Positions 22,508-29,382 of a stretch of DNA of 64,000 nucleotides are shown here, piece after piece (position 1 is the first letter of the stretch; every line of letters starts with the position of its first letter). The position numbers and the translations under genes are program-made. Source of the stretch: Escherichia coli. GTDB taxonomy: Bacteria; Pseudomonadota; Gammaproteobacteria; Enterobacterales; Enterobacteriaceae. The stretch is from NCBI RefSeq assembly GCF_003334305.1, contig NZ_QOWS01000009.1; one strand, written 5' to 3'. A model generated the notes under the pieces. It was not told the origin of the DNA. It saw only the letters and a program-made list of their open reading frames with translations, and made no database searches.

Positions 22508-23321
22508 TGACCAAATTCTCAGTGGTTGTCGCAGGCGGTGGAAGCACCTTTACGCCAGGCATCGTGTTGATGCTCCTGGCGAATCAGGAGCGTTTCCCGC
22601 TTCGTGCACTGAAATTTTATGATAACGATGGCGCGCGGCAGGAAGTGATTGCCGAAGCCTGTAAAGTCATCCTTAAAGAGAAAGCGCCGGACATTGCGTT
22701 TAGTTACACCACCGATCCTGAAGTGGCGTTCAGCGACGTTGATTTTGTCATGGCGCACATCCGCGTCGGCAAGTACCCGATGCGCGAACTGGATGAAAAA
22801 ATCCCACTGCGCCACGGTGTTGTTGGTCAGGAAACTTGCGGACCCGGCGGAATAGCGTACGGCATGCGTTCCATTGGCGGCGTCCTGGAACTGGTGGATT
22901 ATATGGAAAAATATTCACCAAATGCCTGGATGCTCAACTACTCCAACCCGGCAGCCATTGTCGCAGAAGCCACGCGTCGTCTGCGCCCGAATGCGAAAAT
23001 CCTCAACATCTGTGACATGCCAATCGGTATTGAAAGCCGGATGGCGCAAATTGTTGGGCTGCAAGATCGCAAACAGATGCGCGTGCGCTACTACGGCCTG
23101 AACCACTGGTGGTCGGCGATATCCCGCAGTTTCAGAAAGGGTTAATGAGTCAGCAAGTGGCGGTGGAAAAACTGGTCGTGGACGCCTGGGAACAGCGTTC
23201 ATATCAGCACCTGTGGCAGGCGATTACGTTGTCGAAAACGGTACCGAGCGCCTCGGTCGCCAAAGCTATTCTGGATGAGTTGCTGGAGGCCAACAAAGCG
23301 TACTGGCCAGAGTTACGTTAA
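22507..23321 (+). pseudogene. glvG: GH4 6-phospho-alpha-glucosidase remnant (internal deletion plus frameshift)
   Basis: 212-aa N-terminal fragment (22507..23145, GGGSTFTPG) ends just after GLNHWW; GH4-like C-terminus (DIPQFQKG...[13 protein letters not shown]...) continues in a different frame to 23321; middle third of the enzyme missing. Confidence 0.75.
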
Positions 23322-24211
23322 TTGTGTGGACTGGCATCCGTTGGGTGCTGGTCCGTATTCTTTAGCACGGCTGACGGCGCATAACCAAATTTATGTTTAA
23401 AGGCTTTGCTGAAATGAAAGGAGTCGAAGAAGTTGAGCGTATCAGCGACTTCGCCAACCGAGTTTCCTTGTTGCTTTAATAGCGATAGCGCCAGATCCAG
23501 ACGCGCATCGAGGTAATATTCTTTCGGCGTCTTGCCGGTATAGCGTAAAAACAGACGACGCAACCAGGCTTCGCTACAGGGGATCGTGGCAGCCATATCA
23601 GCTACGCTCCAGCGTTGTTGCAGACTGGCATGTAAAGTGGCAATTAATTTTTCAATTTGCCGCCGTTGTGGATCTTTTTTACCATCTGCGTACATAAGAC
23701 AAATCCACTGATAAATAATTTTCGTCAGAAAAGCGACTGCCAGATTATTTTTTATTGCTTCTGGTGAAGTTATTAACTCAGCAACTTCGGTGAGTTCCTG
23801 ATTATAAATTTCGCCATTATAAATAACGCTTTGCTGACCAACGGGAATATCCATCATACTGGTGGGGGTAAATTCCATCCAGTACTGTTCCCAGACTAAA
23901 CCTTCACAGTGATAAGAGTGAATATCCATTGGCTTTAAGAATATAATACAGTTGCCATGCAGTGTTATTTGTTCGCCATTCTTTAAAAGAATTTTCCCAC
24001 ATCCTTGTACGGTATACACCGCAACCCATGAGTTGGCGATAAGCGGTTTCTTCTTGTCCCGCGGCCAGATCACCCGGTAATGCTCGTCGGCGTAGGTATG
24101 CCAGAGCGAGATCAGAGAAATTCCGCTGGAGATCACATTTTCGTTAATCAATAAGGGAATATTGTACGGAGTTTCGTTTTTTACATCTGAACTTTGCAAT
24201 TTTCCATTCAT
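23318..24211 (-). CDS. yidL: AraC-family transcriptional regulator YidL
   Basis: Track ORF 23318..24241; start at [10 protein letters not shown] to give 297 aa; C-terminal AraC HTH. Confidence 0.85.
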
Positions 24212-24377
24212 TTTAATATCCCTCCGGCGAATTATGCTCACAACCTGAACTTAACAGAAAACAATCCGTTCAGGGATACGACGTTTGTATTTTAAGAATC
24301 TGACTGCCTGACCCGACGCATTTTACCTCTCCCTATATTCATGCGTCCGGGACATAAACATAAATAAGGGCTATGAG

Positions 24378-28188: not shown

Positions 28189-28536
28189 ATGAAAATTTCC
28201 CGCCTTGGAGAAGCGCCCGATTACCGCTTCTCGCTGGCTAATGAGCGTACTTTTCTGGCGTGGATCCGTACCGCACTAGGATTTCTGGCGGCGGGGGTTG
28301 GGCTTGATCAACTTGCGCCAGATTTCGCCACGCCCGTCATTCGTGAACTGCTGGCGTTGTTGTTGTGTCTGTTTTCCGGCGGGTTAGCGATGTATGGCTA
28401 CCTGCGCTGGTTACGCAATGAAAAAGCGATGCGTCTGAAAGAGGACCTGCCCTACACCAACAGCTTATTAATCATTAGCTTAATATTGATGGTCGTGGCG
28501 GTGATCGTTATGGGACTGGTGTTGTATGCCGGATAG
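28189..28536 (+). CDS. yidH: Inner-membrane protein YidH (DUF202)
   Basis: 115-aa ORF with ERTFLAWIRT motif. Confidence 0.85.
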   Translation: MKISRLGEAPDYRFSLANERTFLAWIRTALGFLAAGVGLDQLAPDFATPVIRELLALLLCLFSGGLAMYGYLRWLRNEKAMRLKEDLPYTNSLLIISLILMVVAVIVMGLVLYAG

Positions 28537-28888
28537 CCGCAAAGCCAGACGCATTGCCGACCCAGGACTGCAGCCGGAGCGCACATCACTGGCGTGGTTT
28601 CGTACCATGCTGGGCTACGGCGCGTTGATGGCGTTGGCTATCAAACACAACTGGCACCAGGCGGGCATGTTATTCTGGATTTCGATTGGCATTCTCGCCA
28701 TCGTGGCGCTGATCCTCTGGCACTACACCCGTAATCGCAATTTAATGGATGTCACGAATAGCGATTTTTCCCAATTTCACGTAGTCCGTGACAAATTTTT
28801 GATCTCCCTCGCGGTGTTATCTCTCGCAATACTGTTTGCTGTAACGCATATACATCAACTTATCGTATTTATTGAGAGAGTCGCATGA
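28526..28888 (+). CDS. yidG: Inner-membrane protein YidG (DUF202 paralogue)
   Basis: 120-aa ORF with ERTSLAWFRT motif; overlaps yidH by 11 nt. Confidence 0.85.
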   Translation: MPDSRKARRIADPGLQPERTSLAWFRTMLGYGALMALAIKHNWHQAGMLFWISIGILAIVALILWHYTRNRNLMDVTNSDFSQFHVVRDKFLISLAVLSLAILFAVTHIHQLIVFIERVA

Positions 28889-29382
28889 CAGGAAGTCAGG
28901 TCATTGATGCTGAAGAGGACAGGCATAAACTGGTTGTAGAGTACAAGGATGCTCTGCAACCTGCCGATTTTTATCACAATTTCAAACAGTGGGGCATCCG
29001 CTCCGTACAGCTCATTCCCTATCTTGAATTTGATGACCGGGGCGATCTGACGGCCGCTTCGGTGACAGCAGAGCTGTGGGGGAAATTTTTAATTGCCCTG
29101 TTCGAGTGTTGGGTGCGGGCAGATATCAGTCGTATCTCGATTGAGCTTTTTGACGCCACCTTACAAAAATGGTGTGGCAGCGAAAACCCGCAACCGCGCC
29201 GTGACTGCCAGGCGTGCGACTGGCATCGCCTGTGCCCGCACGCTCGCCAGGAGACGCCAGACAGCGTGCTTTGTGCGGGCTATCAGGCGTTTTATTCTTA
29301 CTCCGCACCGCATATGCGGGTGATGCGTGATCTGATAAAGCAGCATCGTTCTCCCATGGAGCTGATGACGATGCTGCGGTGA
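28885..29382 (+). CDS. yidF: YidF, SPASM-domain fragment resembling the C-terminal half of an anaerobic sulfatase-maturating enzyme
   Basis: 165-aa ORF with C-terminal cysteine cluster WCGSENPQPRRDCQACDWHRLCPH; no CxxxCxxC radical-SAM motif. Confidence 0.8.
   Translation: MTGSQVIDAEEDRHKLVVEYKDALQPADFYHNFKQWGIRSVQLIPYLEFDDRGDLTAASVTAELWGKFLIALFECWVRADISRISIELFDATLQKWCGSENPQPRRDCQACDWHRLCPHARQETPDSVLCAGYQAFYSYSAPHMRVMRDLIKQHRSPMELMTMLR

Follow-up and report, generated by a model that had tools for sequence, protein, structure and literature searches.

The yidL–yidF region of Escherichia coli, which occupies positions 23318–29382 of the window analysed here (the whole 64,000-nucleotide stretch of contig NZ_QOWS01000009.1), raises the question of how its sulfatase, YidJ, acquires formylglycine (FGly) and of what YidF, the only maturase-like protein encoded beside it, does. 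A sequence-only reading of the window had described YidF as the C-terminal Cys-rich, SPASM-like segment of a maturase, without the CxxxCxxC motif of radical S-adenosylmethionine (SAM) enzymes. Our analysis indicates that YidF is what is left of an anaerobic sulfatase-maturating enzyme (anSME; a radical SAM/SPASM enzyme, model TIGR03942) after two deletions, that the same shortening appears to have happened in several lineages, and that the short protein, as we read the data, is held by purifying selection in company with yidH and yidG rather than with yidJ. The gene and its retained parts, mapped by alignment of 62 orthologues, are as follows.

28885..29382, plus strand: yidF, a doubly deleted anSME derivative of 165 aa (alignment, profile match and fold match).
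28885..28911, plus strand: retained N-terminal residues MTGSQV..., homologous to MTGC(H/Q)VMAKP of the full-length proteins (alignment of the 62 orthologues).
28927..29184, plus strand: end of the radical-SAM barrel (strand-helix-strand-helix), YidF residues ~15–100, aligning to residues ~158–255 of the full-length orthologue.
29206..29274, plus strand: Cys motif C108-x2-C111-x5-C117...C130, spaced like the Aux-II ligands of anSMEcpe in the second SPASM half (alignment).
29269..29379, plus strand: C-terminal helices, LCAGYQAF...SAPHMRVMRDLIKQHRSPMELMTMLR, where YidF is best conserved, being nearly invariant across genera.

Relative to the full-length orthologues, two in-frame blocks are missing from E. 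coli YidF: the first, just after 28885..28911, comprises ~140 residues, the whole of the radical-SAM core, and the second, at ~29185–29200, comprises ~55–60 residues, the first half of SPASM. With the second deletion go three of the four ligands of auxiliary cluster I (Aux-I), the three N-terminal Aux-I Cys columns being gone in 35 of 35 short forms, and the proposed catalytic base of anSMEcpe, the Clostridium perfringens enzyme, is located in the same deleted SPASM stretch. Cys108, Cys111 and Cys130 are invariant in the 35 short and in all 25 full-length forms, and in our reading of the alignment every short form has a fourth Cys 6–10 residues past the CxxC. The putative division of these cysteines between Aux-I and Aux-II follows the published anSMEcpe structure and an alignment to that enzyme, and it reflects alignment and spacing only.

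A CxxxCxxC motif was not found in the 165-aa E. coli protein, and a Pfam search of YidF gave no match, the SPASM model included. Against TIGR03942, YidF aligned over model positions 160–245 and a second, C-terminal stretch only, scoring 74.7 bits against a cut-off of 349.45. When the N-terminal 155 residues of a full-length orthologue, or its first SPASM half, were compared with the whole window by tblastn, both searches returned noise in unrelated places (best E = 0.19 and 0.024, respectively), which rules out a radical-SAM half hidden elsewhere in the window, no remnant being found in any frame. E. coli YidF lacks every element needed for radical SAM chemistry and, as it has no radical-SAM cluster motif, radical FGly formation by YidF should be impossible. 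The sequence-only reading was therefore right about a C-terminal Cys-rich part without CxxxCxxC, but its ‘SPASM-like segment’ was overstated, since only the second SPASM half is there and Pfam finds none; the N-terminal domain that it held to be missing is now mapped by aligning YidF to anSME/AslB (the ~140 residues above), with the deletion of ~55–60 residues in addition.

The structure predicted for YidF by AlphaFold (AF2) has a pLDDT of 83.7 and a pTM of 0.81, with pLDDT values of 87–97 over residues 11–90 and 90–93 in the C-terminal helices, and low values in the first ten residues. In a fold search of the PDB with Foldseek, the only significant matches of this model were chains of anSMEcpe, 4K36–4K39 (E = 2.5e-6, TMq 0.64). 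With the C-terminal part aligned and the fold matching anSMEcpe alone, homology to anSMEs, and to no unrelated family, was upheld, and alignment and predicted model together indicate that YidF shares both descent and fold with the anSMEs.

What the ancestral gene looked like can be judged from its relatives, in which, as in E. coli, yidF stands after two genes for small membrane proteins.

28189..28536, plus strand: yidH, DUF202 membrane protein of 115 aa (PF02656, E = 6e-19).
28526..28888, plus strand: yidG, second DUF202 membrane protein, of 120 aa (PF02656, E = 3e-11).

The first protein search gave short YidF-like proteins of 162–178 aa in several genera and a few with ~55 extra residues matching SPASM, and an Atlantibacter metagenome-assembled genome carries the gene order araC, then symporter, sulfatase, DUF202, DUF202 and maturase. 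The seeming split of the maturase at that locus, L002 (162 + 204 aa; L numbers are our handles for the loci compared), proved to be an assembly artefact caused by two N bases, a near-identical Atlantibacter genome having a single 374-aa gene. Sampling of one genome per species gave 63 Enterobacteriaceae loci, in 25 of which the gene after yidH–yidG encodes an anSME of 367–374 aa with a complete SPASM domain. All 25 full-length YidF orthologues have CxxxCxxC at residues 15–22, and the full-length protein aligns nearly end to end with anSMEcpe 4K36 (E = 8e-69) and is 44% identical to AslB and to YdeM. The ATG of yidF overlaps the stop codon of yidG in E. coli, as it does in the majority of the loci inspected, whichever form of yidF they carry. 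Gene order in these relatives points to descent of the E. coli locus from a five-gene unit, yidK–yidJ–yidH–yidG–yidF, under the divergent AraC regulator yidL. The sequence-only reading had recognized a divergent regulator and transporter–enzyme unit in yidL, yidK and yidJ, and this stands, but the boundary that it drew at yidJ does not, since the relatives continue through yidH and yidG to yidF.

A neighbour-joining tree with bootstrapping, built on 165 shared columns, places the short forms in more than one part of the family. Those of Leclercia and Silvania group beside a full-length Leclercia gene (88% bootstrap), in a clade with 100% support whose remaining members are all full-length or near-full-length, and they share with that Leclercia gene both a five-residue gap and a C-terminal extension. 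The 192-aa form of Citrobacter amalonaticus ku-bf3 has kept CxxxCxxC but nothing else of the core, and its first SPASM half is gone; its closest relatives are full-length genes of C. amalonaticus. Intermediate lengths of 220 and 249 aa were also seen, as were partly decayed near-full-length copies, one with a broken cluster motif and a 14-residue gap in SPASM (L045) and one with a 23-residue gap (L040), and the deletion junctions vary by several residues among lineages. Because of the tree placement, the common five-residue gap, the nearest-neighbour identities and the differing junctions, the short architecture appears to have arisen at least three times independently, recombination of alleles being a less parsimonious account; a single origin is contradicted by the first three of these.

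Is the shortened gene then still a gene? In 35 species representatives, the short or intermediate forms share their start and their end and have an uninterrupted reading frame between them, and yidF is present at its full 165-aa length in 5421 of the 5426 complete E. coli genomes that formed our strain-level comparison set. In a simulation of neutral substitution, 0.6% of copies were still open at 0.4 substitutions per site. The ratio of nonsynonymous to synonymous divergence (dN/dS), estimated pairwise by the Nei–Gojobori method, with dS saturated in some pairs, was 0.06–0.34 for short-form yidF (14 pairs), and none of 1000 bootstrap replicates of nine short-form pairs reached a dN/dS of 1. 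The head region of the short forms gave 0.09–0.41; the C-terminal tail gave 0.00–0.10 in 12 of the 14 pairs, with ordinary dS. For comparison, the values were 0.06–0.21 for full-length yidF, 0.00–0.16 for yidG and mostly 0.00–0.06 for yidH. The very low dN of the tail, where dS is ordinary in most pairs, excludes a constraint on the nucleotides at the 3′ end (an overlapping gene, small RNA or terminator) as its cause, and a frame kept merely for translational coupling or protection of the mRNA predicts a dN/dS near 1, which was not observed.

Since dN/dS is well under 1, the frame is open across species and the Cys residues are invariant, our reading is that short YidF is probably a real, fast-evolving small protein under purifying selection, not a pseudogene. 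Some of the data pull the other way. Short-form dN/dS exceeds that of yidG, yidH and full-length yidF, and between the short-form loci of E. coli and Citrobacter YidF has only 47–52% identity, against 80–84% for YidG and 91–97% for YidH; constraint on short yidF is clearly relaxed. The gene is frameshifted in four of the 63 species representatives (L023, L041, L058 and L067), and minor frameshifted variants occur within E. coli too. From such facts one could argue that YidF is a dying fragment without function, that the sulfatase locus consists of yidLKJ only and that YidJ relies on AslB or YdeM, which is in essence what the sequence-only reading proposed: every catalytic element of the radical chemistry has gone, the protein changes much faster than its flanking genes, partly decayed (L040, L045) and frameshifted copies occur, and RefSeq calls the K-12 protein an ‘uncharacterized protein’. 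We think this quite unlikely, because dN/dS is well under 1 in every lineage tested, head region included, a neutral copy would almost never have kept its frame open as it is in ~35 species, several residues are invariant (the three Cys in all 60 sequences), separate lineages arrived at this one architecture, and yidF is a core gene of E. coli.

The company that yidF keeps suggests where its function should be sought. Taking ‘without’ a gene to mean none within 8 kb, we count 15 species in which yidLKJ accompanies full-length yidF and 10 in which full-length yidF stands without them (Kosakonia, Yokenella and one Leclercia are among these 10); with short yidF, an intact yidJ is present in 10 species, such as Escherichia, Salmonella arizonae, Klebsiella oxytoca and Superficieibacter, and short yidF stands without yidJ in more than 20, among them the C. 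freundii complex, L. adecarboxylata, Silvania, Raoultella and K. pneumoniae. The trio yidH–yidG–yidF is the constant part and yidLKJ the optional one, and YidF is linked to yidH–yidG rather than to yidJ. The view of YidF as a mere leftover beside yidJ thus fails on two counts, purifying selection and this linkage. Enterobacter sp. CC120223-11 (L051) has only ~100 nt of the 3′ end of yidJ upstream of yidH (6664–6764), which looks like a deletion scar left by the loss of yidLKJ, yidHG and a full-length yidF having been retained. A few kb upstream of yidH in Silvania (L043, 2527–3513) and Leclercia sp. 29361 (L062, 2014–3063), the opposite strand carries a distant sulfatase-family gene, 23% identical to YidJ.

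Immediately 3′ of yidF, some loci carry the D-serine genes dsdA–dsdX–dsdC (in Citrobacter and Leclercia; L003/L004, 8544–12389; L005, 8504–12294). This neighbourhood, and the persistence of the trio without yidJ, are compatible with a second alternative, in which E. coli yidH–yidG–yidF no longer has anything to do with sulfatases and instead helps the cell to export or tolerate small molecules, D-amino acids for example. YidH was found (with YidG in the first round) in an overexpression screen for D-alanine export, but a direct D-alanine transport assay of YidH in the same study was negative (PMC10299036), and raised D-serine resistance on YidF overexpression is an entry in a table of PMC12363166, which gives it at second hand. 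The hints from these two reports come from overexpression only, and at greater phylogenetic depth YidH-type genes go with sulfatase/anSME loci; we regard this alternative as decidedly improbable; the dsd adjacency and the overexpression reports may be coincidence or a lead.

The sulfatase itself carries the signature for formylglycine.

26090..27583, plus strand: yidJ, cytoplasmic Cys-type S1 sulfatase of 497 aa (Pfam Sulfatase and SGSH_C).
26243..26275, plus strand: codons of the formylglycine signature, C52-TPARAGLFTG (read from the translation).

YidJ matches PF00884 over the whole model (positions 1–301 of 301, E = 1.8e-72), with SGSH_C matched as well, and its signature aligns with that of solved sulfatases. 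The 26 YidJ orthologues examined are all intact, at 497 or 498 aa, and C52-TPARAGLFTG is identical in every one of them, beside full-length and short YidF alike, so that the intact catalytic Cys motif claimed in the sequence-only reading was confirmed on alignment. The N-terminus has no hydrophobic, signal-peptide-like segment, and YidJ is for that reason taken to be cytoplasmic. Its nearest solved relatives, at most ~1e-46, are S1_30A, carrageenan and GlcNAc-6 sulfatases, which have diverse substrates; the description of the substrate of the locus as undefined accords with a report on a yidK deletion mutant, which has a galactose growth phenotype and in which the function of YidK is stated to be unknown (PMC5293155).

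Both aslA–aslB and ydeN–ydeM are present in K-12, and a third FGly-forming system in E. coli, besides AslB and YdeM, is suspected (PMC8379841, citing Benjdia 2007), so the FGly of YidJ could have an origin other than AslB and YdeM. As YidF is without the radical-SAM elements, maturation would have to come from elsewhere, and it is a reasonable inference that YidJ is matured in trans, by AslB, by YdeM or by the suspected third route. The weakest of the alternatives, that the short YidF still serves YidJ as a non-radical helper (it might keep the CTPAR segment unfolded and within reach of another oxidant) or as part of a third FGly system independent of AslB and YdeM, draws on its derivation from an enzyme that binds this signature, on the possible redox site that it has kept, on its presence beside an intact YidJ (Escherichia, S. 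arizonae, K. oxytoca and Superficieibacter) and on the suspected third route, but is in our judgement highly improbable, given more than 20 species with the short form and no yidJ within 8 kb, and the removal of the SAM cluster and of the SPASM stretch with the proposed catalytic base.

The positive part of the answer depends on YidH and YidG. The two genes overlap by 11 nt, and both proteins have an N-terminal (A/P)-(N/E)-E-R-T-x-L-(A/S)-W motif followed by hydrophobic segments. They are not candidates for anSME substrates, as neither has a (C/S)xPxR signature. The only solved sequence relatives of YidH are chains of yeast Vtc1, with E ~3e-3 and an alignment that runs over the full length and includes ANERTFL(A/S)W. 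Outside the Enterobacteriaceae, in a small sample taken from the top of one search, relatives of YidH with 41–54% identity stand in sulfatase/anSME loci of five further types, which hold an importer, a Cys-type sulfatase without signal peptide and an anSME, or a subset of these.

L074: AraC, then SSF – sulfatase – two DUF202 genes.
L075: 3′ end of an anSME gene (read from the sequence) – two DUF202 genes.
L076: PTS – sulfatase – GntR – two DUF202 genes – anSME.
L077: MFS – sulfatase – two GH16 genes – DUF202 ... TauE ... anSME.
L078/L079: SSF – sulfatase – anSME – DUF202, stop and start codons overlapping.

In two of these locus types, the stop codon of one gene and the start codon of the other overlap between anSME and DUF202. 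The anSME that follows the DUF202 pair in L076 (6690–7982) ends in a SEC-C, SecA-type metal-binding, motif, ...CPCGSGKKYKKCC, which suggests that the C-terminal tails of these maturases may be interaction modules.

Putting these strands together, the explanation that we favour, with a confidence only a little above even, is that a short, anSME-derived YidF has been kept by selection with yidH–yidG in a non-catalytic role, while YidJ is matured in trans and YidH–YidG serves as an exit for sulfate. The comparison shows the first part of this: in the Escherichia lineage and, independently, in at least two others, yidF has lost its radical-SAM core and the first half of SPASM, leaving a soluble protein of 165 aa, and selection has retained this core, inherited with yidH–yidG regardless of the sulfatase genes. 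Presumably incapable of making formylglycine, the short protein would leave the maturation of YidJ to enzymes encoded elsewhere and would carry on a second activity of the ancestral enzyme, one that needs no catalysis; the likeliest would be to dock on, or regulate, a membrane complex of YidH and YidG, possibly with one Fe–S cluster or metal site. YidH–YidG, for its part, would form an anion pore that releases the sulfate arising from cytoplasmic desulfation. The association of YidF with YidH–YidG is suggested by the stop/start overlap, which is found in two gene orders, and by co-inheritance; the sulfate exit is suggested by the analogy with Vtc1 and by the repeated finding of genes of the YidH type beside those for an importer, a cytoplasmic sulfatase and an anSME. 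Both the docking or regulating role and the sulfate pore are hypotheses.

Several observations count against parts of this explanation. The convergence was read from neighbour-joining trees of 165 columns only. The Cys region of YidF is predicted with a confidence of just 58–69 and escapes the Pfam SPASM model, and the translation of the short protein, its cluster or metal binding and its contact with YidH or YidG are all predictions from sequence. The association of DUF202 with sulfatases rests on a handful of contexts; an actinobacterial relative of YidH has no sulfatase or anSME in its context, and three more contigs were too short to judge. By itself, moreover, the sulfate-pore idea would leave unexplained why yidHGF persists without a nearby sulfatase. 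A bolder version, which we consider unlikely but worth stating, extends the analogy with Vtc1: YidH–YidG would be an anion pore of the Vtc1 kind that a cytoplasmic anSME uses as its docking site, bringing sulfatase maturation and sulfate disposal to one membrane site, and the short YidF would be its docking or gating subunit, possibly Fe–S-bearing, a pseudoenzyme with a new job and conceivably part of a route independent of AslB and YdeM.

The remaining features of the locus are listed here.

23318..24211, minus strand: yidL, AraC-family regulator, 297 aa by the RefSeq start (AraC HTH matches, E = 7e-15).
24212..24377, no strand: divergent control region of yidL and yidK–yidJ (intergenic by annotation).
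24378..26093, plus strand: yidK, sodium:solute symporter of 571 aa (NF007790 and TIGR00813).
27630..28079, minus strand: yidI, small membrane protein, an accessory segment between yidJ and yidH.

The coordinates of yidL, yidK, yidJ, yidI, yidH, yidG and yidF agree with the RefSeq annotation. The region 23318–29382 is 100% identical to that of E. coli strain A7, and part of it is matched in 5422 of the 5426 complete E. coli genomes. The assignment of yidL as an AraC regulator in the sequence-only reading held, the protein having an AraC-type helix-turn-helix (HTH), but the 307-aa ORF, from an older start at a GTG at 24241, is ~10 codons too long: RefSeq starts the gene at 24211, and that GTG is the mapped transcription start site of yidL (PMC3950696). 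The same work found yidL to be repressed by H-NS and activated by BglJ–RcsB, and mapped the yidL promoter and the BglJ–RcsB site in the control region 24212..24377. A promoter/terminator consensus scan of the locus found fewer promoter-like sites than in shuffled sequence and is thus little informative; it returned nothing notable in that intergenic region. YidK scored 856 bits against NF007790 (cut-off 401) and 418 bits against TIGR00813 (cut-off 184), and the stop of yidK and the start of yidJ share an ATGA overlap. Within Escherichia cryptic clade II, yidJ and yidL were reported to be enriched among gut-associated strains (PMC7716201).

YidI matched nothing in Pfam or NCBIfam. The yidI segment (yidI and its flanks, 27584–28188) has no match in 1419 of the 5426 E. 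coli genomes (~26%) and is missing from most other genera; in strain CCUG 73778, which lacks yidI, yidJ is followed directly by yidH. It is a presence/absence polymorphism within E. coli that splits the ancestral yidKJ–HGF operon. In the same strain, the glv genes and yidP are absent along with yidI, and yidJ is broken into two open reading frames (ORFs). On the other side of yidL, among the glv genes (20891–23321), glvC and glvB form one 538-aa PTS ORF in the window and two genes in K-12, and glvG is frameshifted in both. Next after yidF comes emrD, in convergent orientation, and the interval from emrD to ilvB (30614–31870), with ysdE, tisB (with istR in K-12) and ivbL, is K-12-like and unrelated to the yidF finding.

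Names in use for the 165-aa protein vary. RefSeq has ‘uncharacterized protein’ for K-12, and an older EcoGene-style annotation listed YidF as a putative ‘YidJ-maturating enzyme’. PGAP names it ‘radical SAM protein’, despite the lack of a radical-SAM cluster motif or core; this label, inherited from the full-length relatives, is misleading. That YidF is truncated and lies by yidJ is largely annotation-level knowledge. Literature searches on yidF with anaerobic sulfatase, or on yidJ with sulfatase maturation, found nothing; nor did those on a syntenic full-length yidF, on convergent reduction, on selection on the remnant or on the DUF202 association, and among the papers searched none links DUF202 to sulfatases in its title or abstract. 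A search on the S1_30 subfamily gave only false matches.

Seen in this light, seven y-genes of K-12 become one testable unit with corrected boundaries, the sulfatase operon having historically included yidH, yidG and yidF. The unit would also provide a natural case of pseudoenzyme evolution, in which a radical-SAM enzyme was convergently cut to a core of ~165 aa and then kept by selection, and the convergently retained core would imply a second, non-catalytic function in the anSMEs of this clade. This bears on research into sulfatase maturation and on users who co-express sulfatases in E. coli. As a hypothesis, it would further give bacterial DUF202 proteins a first functional context, either as an exit for sulfate or as a membrane platform for a maturase.

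In the yeast VTC complex, DUF202 units form a polyanion-conducting ring directly under a cytoplasmic enzyme domain. YidH and YidG carry the same DUF202 domain as Vtc1 (PDB 7YTJ, 8I6V and 9UMG), and the pairing of enzyme and DUF202 in VTC has a counterpart in the translational coupling of the yid DUF202 genes to the gene for a cytoplasmic enzyme. Unlike VTC, the bacterial proteins stand alone, without SPX or TTM, and their partner is a radical-SAM enzyme or its remnant rather than a polymerase; the similarity is weak (E ~3e-3), and the pore is predicted by analogy. A functional parallel, with no sequence relationship to DUF202, is offered by sulfite/sulfate exporters of the TauE/SafE family and similar ones, encoded in desulfonation pathways. 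There, too, a cytoplasmic reaction gives off sulfur oxyanion in stoichiometric amounts, with the gene for a small membrane protein alongside; L077 has a TauE gene as well.

Among sulfatase loci, the ancestral yid unit resembles aslA–aslB and ydeN–ydeM of E. coli, and chuR with the sulfatases of Bacteroides, in pairing a sulfatase with an anSME, to which it adds a transporter and a regulator. AslA and YdeN are exported enzymes, whereas YidJ lacks a signal peptide and has an importer for its partner, and desulfation would therefore be cytoplasmic. The yid unit also differs from those loci in the DUF202 pair that lies between sulfatase and maturase and, in E. coli, in a maturase cut to a non-catalytic core. 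Compared with the anSMEs themselves (anSMEcpe of C. perfringens, AtsB of Klebsiella, and AslB and YdeM of E. coli), full-length YidF aligns nearly from end to end with anSMEcpe. E. coli YidF shares with them the last elements of the barrel, the CX2CX5C...C motif and the C-terminal helix pattern P[HY][ML]xxMxxL, but not CxxxCxxC, the SAM-binding core (~residues 1–150) or three of the four Aux-I ligands, and its SPASM part is incomplete beside the seven or eight Cys that hold two auxiliary clusters in those enzymes. By this comparison, E. coli YidF is best described as a pseudoenzyme derivative of the anSMEs rather than as a functional member of the family.

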